IMG/VR virus record: IMGVR_UViG_3300049988_000124
Span: 160,001-224,000 of that record
Source of the DNA: a virus
Lineage: Duplodnaviria; Caudoviricetes
Reading direction: 5' to 3' (one strand)
DNA length: 64,000 nucleotides
This document shows, piece after piece, positions 5,407-36,224 of the stretch. Every line of letters starts with the position of its first letter. Positions within the stretch are counted from its first letter, which is position 1. Below the pieces are notes generated by a model, which worked only from the letters and a program-made list of their open reading frames with translations, was not told the origin of the DNA and did not search any database. Made by a program: the position numbers and the translations under genes.

Positions 5407-6909
5407 TCAGCTGAGCGTGACTTCGACCTTCACACCGAGCTTGTCGCCGAGGCGCTTGAGCTCGTTGATGTGGTAGAAGAAATCGGTCATGTGCGTATCG
5501 TCGACCTTGGCACTGTTCGAGGCTGCATTGCTGACCGGCACCTTGACAGCAGGAGTCTCGACCGGTACATCGGTCACCGAGCCGACCGGCTTCTTGGGAG
5601 CCTGCTTCATCACCTTCAAGAACTGCGTATGCGAGAGCTTGATGACCACGCTCTTCAGACCGTTCTGGAAGTGCTTGCGCGCTGCCTCCGTCAGGTTGGC
5701 GTTGTTGCCGAGCCGAACAAAGACGTTGCGATTGCGCAGGTCGTACTGCTCGATCACGACGTTGATCGGACCGATCCGGTCCTCGCCGATCTTGGTGAAC
5801 ACCATGACGGTCGTGCCGACTGGATGATCCTCGGGGTTGAGACGCTGACGATCGAGTTCCTTCAGGATGACGAAATCATCGAGCGAGTCCCAGGTGTCAG
5901 TACCCTGCTCATCGAAGAGCAGTCGAACCCGATCGTTGGACTGGTGGGGTGCATCCTTGCCCCAACGCAGGATCGTCACCGGCGTCGGTATCCGAACGCC
6001 CTGAACAGGCACGACCAGCAAGCGCTGACCAACAGTGTAGACGTCAGGGTCGAGGAAGGTAACCTGCGGGTCATCGACCTTGCCGAGGATGCCCTTCAGC
6101 TCGATCGATTCGGTCGTGACGACGATGGTCTCGTTGTTGCTCTTGTTGCGAATGGCAAGACCACCATGCTGCTCGATCCACTCCGTCACCACGCCTTCGT
6201 AGACGACGTTGTCGTTGGTCCCATCGCTGAAGAGGATACGCGTGTCGACGGGCGTGAGTTCGGGCGAAGGACGCACCATCTTGGGCTCTTCCTCGCGCGG
6301 CGTGCCGTCGACGTTGAGGAGCTTCACGATGAGGTAATCGCCCGGAACGTGCCAGGCGACGTTGCCGCCGTTGTTCACCCGCGAGCGGAACTTCGAGCCG
6401 AGCCCCGACCATTCGAGAATGGTGATGTCGTGGTCCGGCGCACCGGCGATCAGGAACATGCCCGCTCGCTCGACCAACATGCGGGTACCGGCAGGATGAT
6501 CCTGCTGGTTGATGACGGGCGTGAACGCGAAGTTGCCGAACACCTCATCGACGAGATTGCTGGCCATTGGAGCCTCGTCCGCTGGTGCATCCTCCTTCTT
6601 GGACGGGCGGGGCGGGAGCGAGACGACCTCGGTGCCGTTCTCGGCGACGATCGCGTTGATGAACACGCTCTCGATATGAGCGTCGACCTGCTTGTCCTCG
6701 TTGACGGTCGTCATGCGAACGTAATCGTTCTCGAGGTACTCGGCGATCTTGCTGTCGAACTCACCGCCGTCATCGTTGAGCTGCCACAGAATACGGCTGC
6801 CGATGGGATAATCGGTCGGGTTGGGATGATAGTTGACGCCCTCGATATCGAGCTGGATTTCGGCGGGAGTGGTCACCTCGTTGGTGCCTGCATCCGTGTT
6901 GATATCCAT
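5407..6909 (-). CDS. Protein with five tandem ~65-aa SH3/Tudor-like repeats (500 aa)
   Basis: Repeats begin NPTDYPIGSRIL, NQQDHPAGTRML, SPELTPVDTRIL, DPDVYTVGQRLL, NPEDHPVGTTVM. Start refined to MDINT behind GAAAGG. Confidence 0.75.
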   Translation of the reverse strand: MDINTDAGTNEVTTPAEIQLDIEGVNYHPNPTDYPIGSRILWQLNDDGGEFDSKIAEYLENDYVRMTTVNEDKQVDAHIESVFINAIVAENGTEVVSLPPRPSKKEDAPADEAPMASNLVDEVFGNFAFTPVINQQDHPAGTRMLVERAGMFLIAGAPDHDITILEWSGLGSKFRSRVNNGGNVAWHVPGDYLIVKLLNVDGTPREEEPKMVRPSPELTPVDTRILFSDGTNDNVVYEGVVTEWIEQHGGLAIRNKSNNETIVVTTESIELKGILGKVDDPQVTFLDPDVYTVGQRLLVVPVQGVRIPTPVTILRWGKDAPHQSNDRVRLLFDEQGTDTWDSLDDFVILKELDRQRLNPEDHPVGTTVMVFTKIGEDRIGPINVVIEQYDLRNRNVFVRLGNNANLTEAARKHFQNGLKSVVIKLSHTQFLKVMKQAPKKPVGSVTDVPVETPAVKVPVSNAASNSAKVDDTHMTDFFYHINELKRLGDKLGVKVEVTLS

Positions 6910-7025
6910 GATCTGAAACCTTTCGTTCTTGTTGCCGACAGTTCGGCAGGGGTAAATCGTTGACACTGAATGACCTAACAGGGGATGTGATCAAGAGACC
7001 AGCATCCCCGATTGGGTCAGTGAGA

Positions 7026-7169
7026 TCAGGCCGTGATGGTCGGAACCGGCGTCTTGCTCTCGTGGCTGATCTTCCAGGACCAAACGGTCGTGGCGACTTC
7101 CTTGAAGCCGATAGCAGCGAGACCCAGGACGACGAGTGCACCAACGGCGCGCGAGAAGAGCGAGACCAT
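7026..7169 (-). CDS. Small membrane protein (47 aa, MVSLFSRAVGALVVLGLAAIGFKEVATT...)
   Basis: Hand-found; strong AAAAGGAA RBS and N-terminal hydrophobic helix. Confidence 0.65.
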   Translation of the reverse strand: MVSLFSRAVGALVVLGLAAIGFKEVATTVWSWKISHESKTPVPTITA

Positions 7170-7226
7170 GTGAAATTCCTTTTCTTGAATGAATGAGAAC
7201 CGCTGAATCAGAATTGAATCGGCGAA

Positions 7227-7508
7227 TTACGTATTCTTCTTCTTGCCCTTGTTCAGACGCTGCTTCTTGCAACGCTCAGTACTCATCCACAACCGGTTAG
7301 CCAGGCGCTGCGCTGCGACGACAGCGGCTGCCTCCATGATGTGCGATGAGATCACCTCGTGTGCAGTACCTTTCTTCTGCATCACGATCCACCGCTTGCG
7401 GTGATTCCCACGGTTCAGGAGACGAGGCTCGACGCGCACCAGTCGCAGGTGGGTATCATGCCAATAGCCGCCACGCTCTTCGATCATGGGATTGGGGTGA
7501 ACGATCAT
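7227..7508 (-). CDS. Hypothetical basic protein (93 aa)
   Basis: AAAGGA RBS before MIVHPNP. Confidence 0.6.
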   Translation of the reverse strand: MIVHPNPMIEERGGYWHDTHLRLVRVEPRLLNRGNHRKRWIVMQKKGTAHEVISSHIMEAAAVVAAQRLANRLWMSTERCKKQRLNKGKKKNT

Positions 7509-30035: not shown

Positions 30036-30305
30036 ATGACAACTACGACGGAAGATACCTCACTCGTTAGTGGTGAGATTGACAACCACAAGCAGAACAT
30101 TAACAATTGGGCTGATACCATTCAGAACCAGAAGGTGCCTGAATCCAGGAAAGGCGTGAACGACCGCTTCGTTCGCGATTGCAAGCAGCTCGTTGCTTAT
30201 CTCGATGAGTCTGATTCTCCCTCCTCAGCCGACCTCGTTGACTTCGAGGATCGTCACAACAGCTTGGAAGTGCAGTTCCATCAGCTGAGTGACGACGCTC
30301 AGTGA
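30036..30305 (+). CDS. Small helical protein (89 aa)
   Basis: First gene of the divergent operon; overlaps the next start. Confidence 0.6.
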   Translation: MTTTTEDTSLVSGEIDNHKQNINNWADTIQNQKVPESRKGVNDRFVRDCKQLVAYLDESDSPSSADLVDFEDRHNSLEVQFHQLSDDAQ

Positions 30306-31237
30306 GTGAGGAGCTCCTGAACGATGAGTCGGTAGCAGAAGAAGAAGTAACGACGGGTAAGAAGAAAAAGGCCAAAGTCCCGAAAGAACCCAAAGCCAAG
30401 AAGCGCCCGTCCGACTTCGAGATCTTCCGCACCATCCTTCAACGCACCTCCGAGCGCAAGCAAGCATTTCTCTTGAGGAACCTGGGTGAAGATCCAGACA
30501 TCCTCTTCTTGTGCTCGGCAGATGAAGCAGGATTTACGTTCGGATCTCCAGATCAAGCCATCTCCATGATCGAGTTCACTGATCTAGAACTCAAGTCGGT
30601 CGTGGATCATTACTTGGGTAAACTCCACGGTCTACAACCGGACAGAGAGATCAGCGGCTTCGTATGCCTGCGCGATCAAATCTCTGAATTGGGTAAAACC
30701 AAGGGGGAAGAGTTTACCGACGAGGTCTTTACGAACGAAGCAGGTTCTGCCTGGATCGTGCGGAAGGACAACAAGGATCGGTCCAAGCCGTTCTACTACG
30801 CGCTGGCCATCGACAGCCTCTTTCATGTTCAACTCGTTGCTGACTATTGCAAGAACTTCAGACCCTTGCTCGACGGCAACAATGCTGACTATCTCTACTA
30901 CCCCTATAGTCACGAGTCCAACGACACCGCATCCATCGTAACCCTCCCGCCTCGTGCGGAGTACCGCGACCATATGCTGGGTAAAGCCTATCCTCACGGC
31001 TTCAGGGCCATGATGACCAAGGGCTTGGATATCGCCATGACCAAGTGCGTGCGTGACGACTTTCCTTATCCCGTGGTGGATGAGGAGATCATCGTTTGGC
31101 ACGACGGGGGTAGTGCTTGTCAGCTCGTTCACCGGGTCGTCGCGCAAGGCTGGCGTATGATCACGGTGCGGCCTAATGCCATTCACGTACCCACTCCCCA
31201 AACACCTTTGCATCTCACAGGAAATCACCAGTTATGA
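30302..31237 (+). CDS. Hypothetical protein (311 aa)
   Basis: GTGA and ATGA translational coupling on both sides. Confidence 0.75.
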   Translation: MSEELLNDESVAEEEVTTGKKKKAKVPKEPKAKKRPSDFEIFRTILQRTSERKQAFLLRNLGEDPDILFLCSADEAGFTFGSPDQAISMIEFTDLELKSVVDHYLGKLHGLQPDREISGFVCLRDQISELGKTKGEEFTDEVFTNEAGSAWIVRKDNKDRSKPFYYALAIDSLFHVQLVADYCKNFRPLLDGNNADYLYYPYSHESNDTASIVTLPPRAEYRDHMLGKAYPHGFRAMMTKGLDIAMTKCVRDDFPYPVVDEEIIVWHDGGSACQLVHRVVAQGWRMITVRPNAIHVPTPQTPLHLTGNHQL

Positions 31238-32901
31238 CTGACCAGTCAAACCAGGACGATCAGGATGACATCCTGAACGATCCTACCGATGTCACAGAGG
31301 AGTCAACAGCCAATGTTGCTCCTCCTGTTGATCCCGTCGCCGACGTGATCGACGAGGACGACACTGCTCCTGCCGACGCTCCTGCTGAAGCCAATGACGA
31401 GGACAACGTCGAGGCTGACGACGAGGATGAAGACGCCGAGATCACCAGCACCACTCAGATTCAGTACGATGACACGCTCATCGAGCTGCGCGGTGGTAGC
31501 ATGGAAGAGATCGAGGCGCTGCTCCAGGCAGCCAACGACACCCTCGGCTACAAGGCACTCGATGCTGATGTTCGCACAACAGGATCGTGGGCTAACATCC
31601 TTTATCGCATGCGCATGGATCCCAACTTCGAGGAGATCCGGTCGCAGAAGGCAATCTCGCTCTTCTCTCCTGAACAGCGAGCAATCCTTCAGGAAGTCGC
31701 GGTCGATGATAACGGCAAGGTCTCCTTCAAGGCCTCGGTCAAGCGTAACGAGGACGGCAAGATCGTTCTTCGTACCTCGCGCCTCAACAAGAAGCTGTCG
31801 ACTGGTGAGCGCAAGACCCTGACAGGTCAGGCAGCACTTCTGGCCTTTGAGACCGAAGGCAAGGGTGGCGGTTGGCGCGTACCGCTCTACAATTCTGGAC
31901 TGACGATCGATATCCTGGCACCGACGGGTAACGATTTCCAGACCATGCTCTACAATTGTTCGATCCTTGACCGAGAGATGGGCTCGCGCCTGGGTGCCCA
32001 TTACTTCACCTACAGCGATGTGATGTTCAAGACGCAGATCCTGAACTTCATCCAGCCGCTCATCATCGGCTCCTCGTTCGCTGATTGGCAGAAGCGCGAC
32101 AAGCTCTTTGCCATCATCAAGTTGCCTGACCTTGCCCACATCGTGGCAACGATTGCTGCTATCTGCTACCCCAACGGATACCCTGACTTCGTGGTGACGT
32201 GTAAGCAGATGCCCGACAAGGAGAAGGGAATCGAGCTGTGTGGTCACTCAGAGAAGCTCACCGCTGACATCATGAAGTTGATTGTCACGCGCTTCTCGTC
32301 GATGTCACCGAGCGCCATCGAGCACATGACCGCTGCCCGTACCGCTGGGTCCAAGCACAACGCGTCGCAGATTGCCAAATATCAGGCAGACCTCGGTTTC
32401 GAGGGTGAGAAGCTCACCTTTGGTAAGGTTTCCTTTACCATGCGGATCCCGAGTCTTACTGAGCACCTGGAGGCGGGCGCGCAGTTCCTGGCTGACATCG
32501 TCAATGAAATTGATGGTGACAATAAGCAGGGTCGTGAAGAGCAGGTTGGTATTCGCTACATGCGAACCTTTGTTCCCTGGATCGACTCGGTTGAGAAGGA
32601 ACTGGAGAACGGCTCGACGGCAGTCACCAGTGATGTGCGCACGATCATTCGTGCGCTCGAGAACCTCGATCTCGATGATCCGACCACGGCAGTTCGCCAA
32701 GTCTTCGAGGACTACATTGGCCGTGTTCAGCTGACCTACGTTGGTCATCCGATCCTGCCGTGCACCAAGTGCGGTCACACAGCTGAAACCCCGTCAGGAA
32801 TGTGGACGTTTGATCCGTTCTCGACTTTTTTTACTTTAGCGTTTCTGTATTTGAGGCCGAGCGACTCTTCGGAGACAAAGACGGACCTGACAAATACCTA
32901 A
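31234..32901 (+). CDS. Putative baseplate-hub/tail assembly chaperone (phiKZ gp52-like, T4 gp26-like architecture; 555 aa)
   Basis: Acidic N-terminus; ICYPNGYP...C...C; C-terminal CTKCGH zinc motif followed by DPFSTFF over a slippery site. Confidence 0.6.
   Translation: MTDQSNQDDQDDILNDPTDVTEESTANVAPPVDPVADVIDEDDTAPADAPAEANDEDNVEADDEDEDAEITSTTQIQYDDTLIELRGGSMEEIEALLQAANDTLGYKALDADVRTTGSWANILYRMRMDPNFEEIRSQKAISLFSPEQRAILQEVAVDDNGKVSFKASVKRNEDGKIVLRTSRLNKKLSTGERKTLTGQAALLAFETEGKGGGWRVPLYNSGLTIDILAPTGNDFQTMLYNCSILDREMGSRLGAHYFTYSDVMFKTQILNFIQPLIIGSSFADWQKRDKLFAIIKLPDLAHIVATIAAICYPNGYPDFVVTCKQMPDKEKGIELCGHSEKLTADIMKLIVTRFSSMSPSAIEHMTAARTAGSKHNASQIAKYQADLGFEGEKLTFGKVSFTMRIPSLTEHLEAGAQFLADIVNEIDGDNKQGREEQVGIRYMRTFVPWIDSVEKELENGSTAVTSDVRTIIRALENLDLDDPTTAVRQVFEDYIGRVQLTYVGHPILPCTKCGHTAETPSGMWTFDPFSTFFTLAFLYLRPSDSSETKTDLTNT
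32826..32832 (+). other. Candidate -1 ribosomal frameshift site T TTT TTT
   Basis: In-frame X XXY YYZ heptamer; the -1 frame is open from 32814 to 33359 with no ATG/GTG/TTG until 32991. Confidence 0.65.
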
Positions 32902-33359
32902 ACGCCTTCTCCAAACTCTGGAACGAAGAACTCACAGCACCGACGAATGACTCTACAGAACTCACGTTCTCGCTAGAGCGTTCCCTGATTTTGAGGAGTT
33001 TCAACGCTCATCATCTGGGAATGGAATACCCACCCGCTGACGATGTCCCAGACATCGTTAAGATCATTGGGGTAGGTAACCGTTTACACAAACCAACTGG
33101 TGAAATTCGTCCCGTCGTGGACTTCTTCTACTCGTACTTCAATCGAATGTCGGAAGTCTTCGAGAATACCCCTGTGGCCAAGGTCTTTGGTATCTCCATC
33201 GTCGATGCTCTTGGTATGCCAGTAAACCGCTGGCACGACATTGCTAGACAAGCCAAGATCATTGCTAACCGTCCGACTGAACCTAGTGAGGAGTCAAAGA
33301 TGGTGGACTTAATGAGAGAGTTCATCGGTGCTTTGACTCCGCGTGGTGACGCGGACTAG
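32832..33359 (+). CDS. -1 frame extension (175 codons; GT/T4 gp51-like chaperone tail); fusion product about 708 aa
   Basis: YFSVSVFEAERLFGDKDG...FFYSYFNRMSEVF...VFGISIVDALGMPVNRWHDI. The ORF track shows only the distal 32991..33359 part. Confidence 0.6.
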   Translation, partial: YFSVSVFEAERLFGDKDGPDKYLNAFSKLWNEELTAPTNDSTELTFSLERSLILRSFNAHHLGMEYPPADDVPDIVKIIGVGNRLHKPTGEIRPVVDFFYSYFNRMSEVFENTPVAKVFGISIVDALGMPVNRWHDIARQAKIIANRPTEPSEESKMVDLMREFIGALTPRGDAD

Positions 33360-33378
33360 ATAAAAGGAAGTTGAATCA

Positions 33379-33996
33379 ATGAGTGAGCAGATTGACGATC
33401 ACAAGACCAATCAGGTCGGTGAAGCCGTGACCACGAACCTCATGAAGAACTATGCTGAGCGTAGTACAGAAGAGGGTCAGGGTCTAGGTGATGCGATCGC
33501 GGAATATATCGATCGTAGCGCTATCAAGGGATTGGACATTCCCGCCTCCACGCAGTCTGTAGCGGGCACTGTCTCGATTCCTATTCCCAAGGAAGTCGCA
33601 GAAGAGAAGATCACCAACGTCAACCACATGTTGGCCAAGCTCTTGGCTGAAAATATCGTGGTGCTCACCGGCTCGACTGAGTTCCCGCTCAGCGTCGTAG
33701 TACCGGTCAACAACCTGTACCGTAACGGTCAGTTCGATGCGATCCCGGTGGAGCTGGACAATGTCGAAATCCTTTACATGTTCACCAGGACTGATCCCGC
33801 TCTTGGTTTCATCTGTTGGTGTCTGAACACCGACTTCCGTAATGGTCCCACCGATGAAGTGTCCGACCAGCTGAAAGAAGGTGGGTGGAACGTCAATGCA
33901 CTGGGTGAATTATTCGATCGTCACAATGTGATGGAGAATACTCATCCTCTCAGCCGGTACCGTCTGCCCAACGCTGATCGCTTGAAGAAGCTTTAA
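33379..33996 (+). CDS. Hypothetical protein (205 aa)
   Basis: AAAAGGAAG RBS. Confidence 0.75.
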   Translation: MSEQIDDHKTNQVGEAVTTNLMKNYAERSTEEGQGLGDAIAEYIDRSAIKGLDIPASTQSVAGTVSIPIPKEVAEEKITNVNHMLAKLLAENIVVLTGSTEFPLSVVVPVNNLYRNGQFDAIPVELDNVEILYMFTRTDPALGFICWCLNTDFRNGPTDEVSDQLKEGGWNVNALGELFDRHNVMENTHPLSRYRLPNADRLKKL

Positions 33997-34008
33997 GCTA
34001 CCATGGAT

Positions 34009-34038
34009 ATACACACAGGGCATATGCCCTGTGTGTAT
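34009..34038. terminator. 30-bp perfect palindrome
   Basis: ATACACACAGGGCAT|ATGCCCTGTGTGTAT. Confidence 0.7.
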
Positions 34039-34139
34039 GTTCGTTATTTTTATCAATGAAATAAATAAAAAAGATATGATCAATTTGTTGCCTTCAGACA
34101 GGTTGACCTTTTTTCTACACCAGAGAAGAAGTTTTCCAC

Positions 34140-36224
34140 ATGCCCGCATTCGATCATGCAGTAGTTTCTGCATCTGTTATTCCATCCACCGAAGGTTGGG
34201 TTGCCGCCATCGGTTGGTTAATCTTCATCTGTCTCGTTGCTGCGTGGATCTATTCTCTCGTCGATCACCGTATCAATCTTGATGATCACAACGGACCTGT
34301 GATCGAAGCTGATTCCGAGATTGAGACGTTCGAGAACGCTTATAGCGGCGATAACCTCAAGGATCCCATGATCGCTGCCATGGAGACCGTGGAGAACATT
34401 CTGGTTCATCACTCAGGTCCCTTTGCCAGTAACTGCATCATCGGTAGTCGCTACCGTCAGGTTAACGACGTCGATGAGTTCACCAAGGACGGCATCAACA
34501 TCTTGAAGCACGTGCTCGTCTCCGAGGACGTCAGTGCTCGCGTGGTGATTCGTCTGGCCCGCTTCGTTGGTATCGCGGTTGACTCACGCTGCCATGATGG
34601 TACCACGACCTCGATGCTGATGTTCTCTGCCCTTGCCAAGGTGGCAATCGAGAAGATCAACGAGAGCCACATGTCGCCTGAGCGTCACCAGTGGACCGAT
34701 GATCTGAAGGCCGCGCTCGATGAGTGCTTGAAGCTCGTTAGCGAACTCAAGGTCACCGAGGATGATATCCTGGAGCTCTGTGGTACTCTCGGCATCGAGA
34801 CGAGCATCACGGACGTGCGTGCATCAATCGCTTATCACATGTCCATGATCTCCTCGAAGGGTGATCACGATCTCTCCACCAAGATCTCCGAGATCATTCG
34901 CTCCTCGCCCAAGAAGATCTACGGCATGTACCGTAACATTCCTCTGGCGATCGAGACTGAGGAAGCCTATATCCTGAAACAGCAGGAGCATGACCTGGGA
35001 ACGCGCGCGAACCTTGGTCACATGGACCACTTCAACCACCGCAACAATACCCAGTACCTCTCAGAAGACGCGGTGATCTTTGCCACGGGAAACGTCATCA
35101 GCGTGGAGAGTATGGAGGCAGGATTCCTCCAGGCCTTTATCTCCACGCGCGTTACCTCCAGGGCTGACCTTTCTACCTTCGGGATGGACAAGGGGTGGGA
35201 GAGCTTCCATGAAGGAAAGCGTCACCTGATCATTATCAGCCCGATGTTGGATGATCCCAACCTCATTCAGACGATCAACAATTTCAACGGTAACAATCCG
35301 TCGATCAAGATCTCCTGGTTCAATTTCCACATCGACCACAAGCTGCGTACCTCGTTCAACAAGACGCTTCACTACATGGCAGGGGTGCCGCTATTCGACG
35401 ACACCATGTTCGTCAATGCTGGTGCATCGCTCATTGGTCTGGGCGAGACCCGCGTCAAGGTGCAGATGATCGGCTCACACCTGGCCATCTCGCATCTCTA
35501 CAAGCGGGACGGTGAAGTCTTTCACCCGCTCTACCGTGACCCGGAAGCCTTCAAGCCCTACACCGACTTCCGCCGGGAGACCGAGGAGATCATTCAGTTC
35601 GCCCAGGAGAACATCACCAACCCGACGCTTGACCAGAATGAGCTCGGGATGATGACCTCCCTCTACCGGTCATTGACGTGTCAGCTGATCTACGACATTG
35701 AGGTGGGTGGCTCCAAGCACGACCAGCGGGCTAACCAGACCGTCTACGAGGACGCGATTGGTGCAGCACTCTCCGCCGTCGATGAAGGCGTGATCTTGGG
35801 TGGCTATGCTCACCTGGCTAATTACTTCAGCGAACTGGCAGAGAAGGATGGGGATCTCGTCTCGGGGATGTTTGCGGATGCTTTCCGCAAGGTCGTCATG
35901 GATTCACTGCGCGTGACAGACGAAGACAGCGCCGACAATCTCCTTGATAGGTTGCCGTCTAACAAATGGTACTACCTCGTTGCTGATCGTGCATCTTATG
36001 GACCCGATGTCGATGCTAACGACTACGTATCATGCCTATGTCTTGGTTACAAGCATGGGATGACTGCGTTCCTCGAGCGTCGTCCTGACCATGCGGTGTT
36101 GCTGCAGGCGTACGGTGGGTATCACGAGCAGTTCAAGCGCTTCCGTGACATCCTTCCCAAGCTCTCGAACACCTCACATCTGATTGATATGAGGAATGAT
36201 AAAGATGTCGCTAACGTTGTCTGA
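34140..36224 (+). CDS. Divergent GroEL-like chaperonin with N-terminal hydrophobic extension (694 aa)
   Basis: SGPFASN, FTKDG, DGTTTS, IEVGG and EDAIGAALSAVDEGVILGG match GroEL equatorial and intermediate motifs. Confidence 0.85.
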   Translation: MPAFDHAVVSASVIPSTEGWVAAIGWLIFICLVAAWIYSLVDHRINLDDHNGPVIEADSEIETFENAYSGDNLKDPMIAAMETVENILVHHSGPFASNCIIGSRYRQVNDVDEFTKDGINILKHVLVSEDVSARVVIRLARFVGIAVDSRCHDGTTTSMLMFSALAKVAIEKINESHMSPERHQWTDDLKAALDECLKLVSELKVTEDDILELCGTLGIETSITDVRASIAYHMSMISSKGDHDLSTKISEIIRSSPKKIYGMYRNIPLAIETEEAYILKQQEHDLGTRANLGHMDHFNHRNNTQYLSEDAVIFATGNVISVESMEAGFLQAFISTRVTSRADLSTFGMDKGWESFHEGKRHLIIISPMLDDPNLIQTINNFNGNNPSIKISWFNFHIDHKLRTSFNKTLHYMAGVPLFDDTMFVNAGASLIGLGETRVKVQMIGSHLAISHLYKRDGEVFHPLYRDPEAFKPYTDFRRETEEIIQFAQENITNPTLDQNELGMMTSLYRSLTCQLIYDIEVGGSKHDQRANQTVYEDAIGAALSAVDEGVILGGYAHLANYFSELAEKDGDLVSGMFADAFRKVVMDSLRVTDEDSADNLLDRLPSNKWYYLVADRASYGPDVDANDYVSCLCLGYKHGMTAFLERRPDHAVLLQAYGGYHEQFKRFRDILPKLSNTSHLIDMRNDKDVANVV

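Follow-up and report, generated by a model that had tools for sequence, protein, structure and literature searches.

A -1 frameshift is reportedly conserved in the tail assembly chaperone genes of long-tailed phages. In phage T7, the capsid gene (gene 10, products 10A/10B) has a -1 frameshift close to its 3' end, at the site G_GUU_UUC. The lambda proteins gpG and gpGT are related by a -1 frameshift, as stated in the part of PMC8570332 that cites Levin, Hendrix & Casjens 1993. In phage T4, the proteins gp26 and gp51 act as hub assembly chaperones (Leiman et al. 2010, PMC3004832, Table 2). Here we describe a gene of the phiKZ gp77 family found in a 64,000-nucleotide stretch of DNA, hereafter the window, which corresponds to positions 160001-224000 of the IMG/VR virus record IMGVR_UViG_3300049988_000124, a leaf-metagenome phage with a whole genome of 307,821 bp. 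Near its 3' end the gene carries a real, conserved recoding site, and the comparison with homologous loci argues that a longer, trans-frame product is very probably made from it.

Organization of the gene and its slippery site

The original prediction, made from the letters alone, had described a 555-amino acid (aa) open reading frame (ORF) with a correctly phased slippery heptamer just past a CxxC motif, and all of these elements are present in the sequence. The features of the locus, in window coordinates, are the following:

31234..32901, plus strand: 0-frame gene for the 555-aa short product, phiKZ gp77 family (PHROG 4585), based on the ORF call, profile match, and predicted fold
32826..32832, plus strand: slippery heptamer T_TTT_TTT of the X_XXY_YYZ type, over Thr531 (third base), Phe532, and Phe533, based on the sequence and the homologous loci
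32833..32838, plus strand: 6-nt spacer ACTTTA from the heptamer to the helix, based on the sequence and the predicted structure
32839..32905, plus strand: predicted stimulatory stem-loop, with an outer helix of 32839-32848 and 32896-32905, based on energy and covariation in the clade
32832..33359, plus strand: -1 frame extension of 175 codons and a stop, reached only by re-reading T32832, predicted to be all-helical
32899..32901, plus strand: 0-frame stop, closing a tail of 22 codons, TLAFLYLRPSDSSETKTDLTNT, which overlaps the first part of the extension
31234..33359, plus strand: putative 708-aa trans-frame product of 533 + 175 aa

Near its C-terminal end, the 555-aa protein reads PCTKCGHTAETPSGMWTFDPFSTFFTLAFLYL. 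The codons at the run of seven T are ACT TTT TTT ACT, within the residues S-T-F-F-T; the CxxC motif comprises residues 510-513, and the FF pair follows 18 residues further on. This run, at 32826-32832, is the sole A/T homopolymer of at least 7 nt on either strand of the 64-kb window. As had been claimed, the -1 frame is free of stops from 32814 to 33359, and its earliest ATG, GTG, or TTG is the TTG at 32991 (59 codons from 32814); an ATG comes next, at 33021. After a slip, the junction in the 708-aa product would read ..TFDPFSTFF from the 0 frame, continued by YFSVSVFEAER from the -1 frame.

At the other end of the protein, residues 1-72 (31234-31450) are strongly acidic, rich in D/E, and predicted to be disordered, with a predicted local distance difference test (pLDDT) value below 50. 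The length of this acidic region varies among relatives. Four cysteines, C323, C336, C510, and C513, are invariant in the family.

Conservation of the heptamer and of the frame layout

A total of 34 loci were compared, namely the window and 33 relatives with a protein identity of 22-63%; the metagenomic relatives showed 34-63% identity and the annotated jumbo phages about 20-26%. The annotated loci were those of phiKZ (gp77), 201phi2-1 (gp136), Erwinia phages RAY (gp267), AH06, and Phobos, Pseudomonas DT01, Serratia PCH45, Salmonella SPLA10, the SPN3US-like EC001, Xanthomonas LucasX, Burkholderia FLC9, Ralstonia RSL2, Klebsiella Eowyn, Aeromonas D3, Vibrio sm033, Kosakonia Kc263, Stenotrophomonas BUCTxx100, Bacillus AgentSmith, and a Halocynthia phage. 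A scan of viral contigs yielded one locus, and the further relatives were taken from metagenome contigs and exact look-ups. Searches of the phage collection with the region (megablast) and with the extension (tblastn) gave no match, because the relatives are too distant; 237 records of the collection match the gp77-like family.

The alignment of homologues, which the original prediction had named as a check, demonstrated that both the slippery codons and the open -1 frame are conserved at all 34 loci. The phased heptamer lies on the same two codons in every case, as T_TTT_TTT (25 loci), T_TTT_TTC (5), T_TTT_TTA (2), or G_TTT_TTT (2), and 32 of the 34 heptamers have the canonical X_XXY_YYZ form, the other two being G_TTT_TTT. 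Throughout the set, the 0-frame stop is located 8-44 codons past the heptamer, and no stop interrupts the -1 frame for another 149-175 codons. Since the phased site recurs in 34/34 homologous loci, it is not a product of chance.

Codon usage was in line with retention of the nucleotides of the site. GC-rich members keep the heptamer even though TTT accounts for only 3-18% of their Phe codons in the rest of the gene. Kosakonia phage Kc263 and Bacillus phage AgentSmith have Leu as the second residue (F-L) and still preserve the heptamer, as T_TTT_TTA. Where the run consists of eight T, the additional T is always on the 5' side, and the Z position is T, C, or A across the loci.

Coding potential of the -1 extension

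According to the alignment, the -1 extensions are homologous over their full length, from the slip site on. In the close clade, divergence at codon positions 1, 2, and 3 was 0.515, 0.373, and 0.681 between the 0-frame stop and the first conserved Met, and 0.551, 0.411, and 0.674 in the remainder of the extension. These near-identical patterns indicate that the stretch before the Met is as coding as the rest. Together with the homology, they bear out the earlier impression that the first 59 codons of the -1 frame read like protein. Where the extension overlaps the 0-frame tail, the third-position divergence was lower (0.557), as dual constraint would predict.

The databases contained the two parts of the locus only as separate proteins. 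A search of 1.84 billion representatives with a profile of the extension recovered 53 proteins, all of 90-202 aa and with scattered called N-termini, and no fused protein of about 700 aa. Similarly, the 35 homologues of the 0-frame protein found in 5.8 billion protein clusters were all of 500-588 aa, and none was near 700 aa. The lack of a fusion, taken with the scattered starts, indicates that the extension never continues the upstream gene in frame, nor does it ever stand as a cleanly separate gene.

This bears on the possibility that the downstream frame holds a small gene of its own, initiated at the TTG at 32991 or the ATG at 33021, and that the T run is incidental. A Met near extension position 63 is conserved in most of the close clade, and the 90-202-aa proteins predicted by gene callers have entered the annotations as phiKZ 076.4, 201phi2-1 gp135, and RAY gp266, a treatment followed in most records. 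However, the 53-63 codons before these starts are conserved as protein and have the codon-position pattern of coding sequence. Among the 34 loci, the distance from the beginning of the extension to its first ATG, GTG, or TTG ranges between 5 and 87 codons, and that to the first ATG between 24 and 139 codons, and no start is conserved; locus L015 has Phe where the other members have the conserved Met. In AH06 and phiKZ, the first start would leave less than half of the conserved domain. No convincing Shine-Dalgarno sequence was seen by eye before 32991 or 33021, and an independent gene would leave the retention of the heptamer in the face of codon bias unexplained. We therefore regard two separate genes as highly improbable.

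The annotated boundaries differ from record to record. RAY gp266 is annotated from upstream of the slip site, within gp267 (locus L002, 3496-4044), whereas the records of phiKZ 076.4, AH06_283, and Aeromonas D3 gp201 hold only the final 68-80 codons of the extension. The record coordinates of the annotated partial extensions are 3281-3523 in L025, 3979-4185 in L001, and 3201-3410 in L029.

An artefact was also considered, in which a homopolymer error in sequencing or assembly splits one real 708-aa gene. Errors are frequent in homopolymers, and the window was assembled from a metagenome. The original prediction had itself listed such an error among the outcomes that would count against it. The seven-T run was, however, found without indel in contigs from four runs, each of a different study. 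Two runs, from leaf metagenomes that may be the source of the window, were nearly identical to it, and two came from divergent relatives. Substitutions among these contigs fell on 0-frame third positions upstream of the run and on -1-frame third positions downstream of it, including the part before 32991. Agreement of four independent assemblies on the run excludes a sequencing error there. Moreover, the two-frame layout is present in 34/34 loci from independently sequenced isolates and metagenomes, and a fused homologue is absent from both protein collections. The artefact is effectively refuted, and we give it next to no probability. In the two divergent relatives (runs X3 and X4), a 1-nt deletion at 32887 is accompanied by a 1-nt insertion after 32890, and both frames are intact.

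Predicted downstream RNA structure and probable mode of slippage

A stem-loop was predicted at 32839-32905, with a free energy (dG) of -21.8 kcal/mol and a z score of -2.59. Its outer helix of 10 bp starts 6 nt past the heptamer, and 8 of the 10 pairs form in the window. The helix is present in 11 of the 14 members of the window's clade. Within this clade, 85% of the helix cells were paired, compared with 26-56% when the partner was slid by 1-3 columns. Changes on both sides were seen in 6/10 helix pairs, and the covariation score was reached by none of 500 shuffles. A search of Rfam with 32600-33100 returned no family. A weak terminator-like match involving the T run, with a 5-bp stem at 32804-32820, was discarded as an account of why the site is conserved, because it leaves the conserved -1 coding frame unexplained.

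The same 708-aa product could be obtained by transcriptional slippage, if a phage or host RNA polymerase added one U at the seven-T run in some transcripts. T runs of 6-8 are present at all loci, one inserted U gives the same downstream -1 frame, and phiKZ-like phages use their own multisubunit RNA polymerases. On the other hand, polymerase stuttering would not require the strict codon phase of the run, and yet this phase is kept. At five loci the run is only six T's long, and C or A can occupy the Z position, while slippage of bacterial RNA polymerase is efficient from about 9 or more A/T. The covarying helix stands at a 6-nt spacing, which is typical for ribosomal stimulators. Because the codon phase is invariant, the extra T is 5', the Z position varies, and five loci have only six T's, ribosomal slippage is preferred over stuttering by the polymerase. 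A search for RNA runs that contain this DNA found none. Transcriptional slippage is a live but minor rival, and an unlikely one, while the pattern of conservation suggests that the trans-frame product probably arises by ribosomal -1 slippage.

Protein identity and predicted fold

The 555-aa product matched phrog_4585, a PHROG of no assigned function, with an E-value of 1.7e-41 over residues 18-541, and tblastn tied it to phiKZ gp77, 201phi2-1 gp136, and RAY gp267. It matched no model in Pfam or NCBIfam, and the extension matched nothing in Pfam, NCBIfam, or PHROGs. The AlphaFold model of the 555-aa product had a pLDDT of 76.5 and a predicted template modeling score (pTM) of 0.74; its terminal helix (528-540) includes the FF codons. 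The model of the extension was all-helical, with a pLDDT of 73 and a pTM of 0.40. No credible match was obtained with the extension model in the PDB and the ESM Atlas or with the extension in a language-model atlas. A match of 0.83 between the extension and a "GT" chaperone cluster, at rank 97, was dismissed as noise.

When BFVD was searched with the 0-frame model, members of the same family came first, followed by models of about 250 aa that carry the names of T4-like baseplate hub assembly proteins, hub subunits, or hub assembly chaperones. These matches had E-values of 2e-4 to 1e-2, a probability of about 1, and a template modeling (TM) score by target of 0.5-0.58, and both sides of the comparison are predictions. 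The 0-frame body is therefore described here as gp26/gp51-like by predicted fold, and not as a member of that family. In the records of 201phi2-1, gp136 and gp135 do not bear the note "identified using mass spectrometry," unlike the neighboring virion proteins, which fits a non-structural assembly factor.

Comparison with described systems

The original prediction had proposed a G/GT-style chaperone pair. As a strategy, with two C-terminal variants in a fixed ratio, the proposal stands: as in lambda G/GT, a heptamer lies close to the 3' end of a gene related to assembly, and a slip by -1 there would yield a short product and, from the same start, one lengthened at its C-terminus; the arrangement is conserved despite diverged sequences. 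The proposed family does not stand. The protein has no homology to lambda G/GT and is 555 aa long, compared with about 140 aa (G about 100-150); neither the 0-frame part nor the extension matched a tail assembly chaperone (TAC) family of Pfam; and the gp77-like gene is not located between the tail tube and tape-measure genes. The extension, of about 170 aa, also differs in matching no known fold. Since the tests of size, family, and position failed, the likeness to G/GT is one of strategy and not of family.

The likeness to T4 gp26/gp51 is of another kind. In addition to the fold matches in BFVD, T4 gp26 has two Cys pairs in common with the family, and the second CxxC is followed, after 15-20 residues, by a hydrophobic C-terminal helix of the FF type. 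The C-terminal end of T4 gp26 reads ..CPECGKTHAHVIRGLKEFFELL, with the CxxC-then-FF order of the jumbo-phage protein, and hhalign aligned the second CxxC of the family to C187/C190 of T4 gp26. T4 gp51 consists of a gp26-like core (PF12322, residues 1-201) with about 48 aa added at the C-terminus. The short paralogue gp26 and the longer gp51 thus loosely parallel the short and long forms proposed for the jumbo phages. However, the sequence-level family test fails for the jumbo-phage protein, which is more than 2x as long and has an additional N-terminal half. T4 relies on a pair of genes instead of a frameshift, and its FF pair is coded by TTC TTT, so there is no slippery site. The jumbo-phage extension is also unlike gp51. 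The suggestion that its end resembles the tail of GT or T4 gp51 was not upheld, as hhalign against gp51 gave a probability of 0.1% and the extension model matched nothing; hhalign of the 0-frame body against T4 gp51 likewise gave nothing. In our T4 locus (L024), gene 26 occupies 5803-6429 and gene 51 occupies 6480-7229, and the stop codon of gene 26 shares bases with the start codon of gene 25 (TAATG).

T7 gene 10 provides a further parallel, with a U-rich slippery site near the 0-frame stop and a C-terminal extension carried by a minority of the molecules. It differs in both the protein and the site, and its extension of about 50 aa is dispensable, in contrast to the universally conserved extension of about 170 aa here.

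Proposed mechanism

The programmed -1 frameshift with products of 555 and 708 aa put forward in the original prediction is strongly backed by the comparative evidence, that is, the heptamer, the homologous -1 frame, the lack of a conserved start, the helix, and the lack of a fusion. Under this model, most ribosomes would go on to the stop at 32899-32901 and produce the 555-aa protein. A fraction would pause over U_UUU_UUU (32826-32832), held by the stem-loop 6 nt downstream, whereupon both tRNA-Phe would slip one base back and the -1 frame would be read to 33359. The resulting 708-aa product would share its first 533 residues with the short form and then carry a different, helical C-terminal domain of 175 residues. 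In analogy to lambda G/GT, the bulk chaperone may be the short form, and the extra domain of the long form may tie the chaperone to a partner, at a ratio that would be set by the efficiency of the slip.

Several observations weigh against this interpretation in one or another of its parts. At two loci, the heptamer is G_TTT_TTT, with poor re-pairing in the P site. The downstream helix is absent from 3/14 clade members (L008, L009, and L016), and RNAalifold returned an empty consensus structure for the full set of 14 sequences because these three members have no helix; the helix was therefore set by hand, and its pairs were counted against controls. Both helix arms are within conserved coding sequence. 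As for the hub chaperone, the 0-frame model found nothing in the PDB and AFDB Swiss-Prot. PF12322 (T4_baseplate) did not match the window protein and matched 1/35 family members, with an E-value of 0.15, whereas the positive controls T4 gp26 and T4 gp51 gave 8.8e-64 and 3.9e-52, respectively. Alignment of the 0-frame family to T4 gp26 by hhalign had an E-value of 0.0028 and a probability of only 11%. Finally, the gp77-like gene is outside any obvious tail module.

Gene neighborhood

In the window, the neighbors of the gene are a divergent DNA polymerase, small ORFs, and a GroEL-like chaperonin. The chaperonin (34140-36224; phrog_5725, E-value 1.3e-17) is two genes downstream, and the order of divergent DNA polymerase, small ORFs, gp77-like gene, and chaperonin was found in all close metagenomic relatives. 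In phiKZ, gp77 has as neighbors the helicase gp75, the head protein gp79, and gp80 of the virion RNA polymerase (vRNAP). A strong 19-bp hairpin with a T tract, terminator-like, is present at 34003-34044 and closes the plus-strand gene run 30036-33996.

The phiKZ chimallin (gp54) had no match at E <= 0.01 in the whole genome to which the window belongs. Either the shell protein has diverged beyond detection or the clade is not nucleus-forming; in the latter case, the frameshift would extend beyond Chimalliviridae.

Implications for the phiKZ-like phages

No description of the site was found in the literature searched, on frameshifts in jumbo and phiKZ-like phages, Chimalliviridae, SPN3US, gp26, and gp77, or in the paper on the RAY core genome. 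This fits the remark in the original prediction that no description was known for phiKZ-like phages, as no paper on a frameshift in the gp77 family was found. The mechanism is conventional, and the gp77 gene family is apparently new for -1 frameshifting. What the window adds is a divergent clade, a covarying helix, a check by independent assemblies, and the lack of a fused form among the 1.84 billion representatives. The existing genetics and proteomics of phiKZ, PCH45, and SPN3US make the site simple to test. The heptamer and the covarying helix also offer a clean natural example of recoding in infected cells with mRNAs made by phage polymerases.

We tentatively suggest, as a possibility that may well prove wrong, a broader rule: one gene, by an ancient and obligatory -1 frameshift, would supply both the short and the long hub-assembly chaperone, a job that T4 splits between gp26 and gp51. 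This would be the jumbo-phage counterpart of the G/GT rule, in another protein family and for the baseplate hub instead of the tape measure, with no fused or cleanly split exception over dozens of genera, and it would have been missed by every genome annotation.

If the frameshift reading is correct, a shared gene is mis-annotated in every genome of the phiKZ-like group, and a conserved domain of ~170 residues has been cut off as a truncated "hypothetical protein" or omitted. The gp77 family would then be the second protein family to follow the rule that, in long-tailed phages, a -1 frameshift fixes the proportion of two assembly-chaperone forms, and it would give a concrete handle on the poorly understood assembly step of the hub that involves proteins of the gp26/gp51 type.

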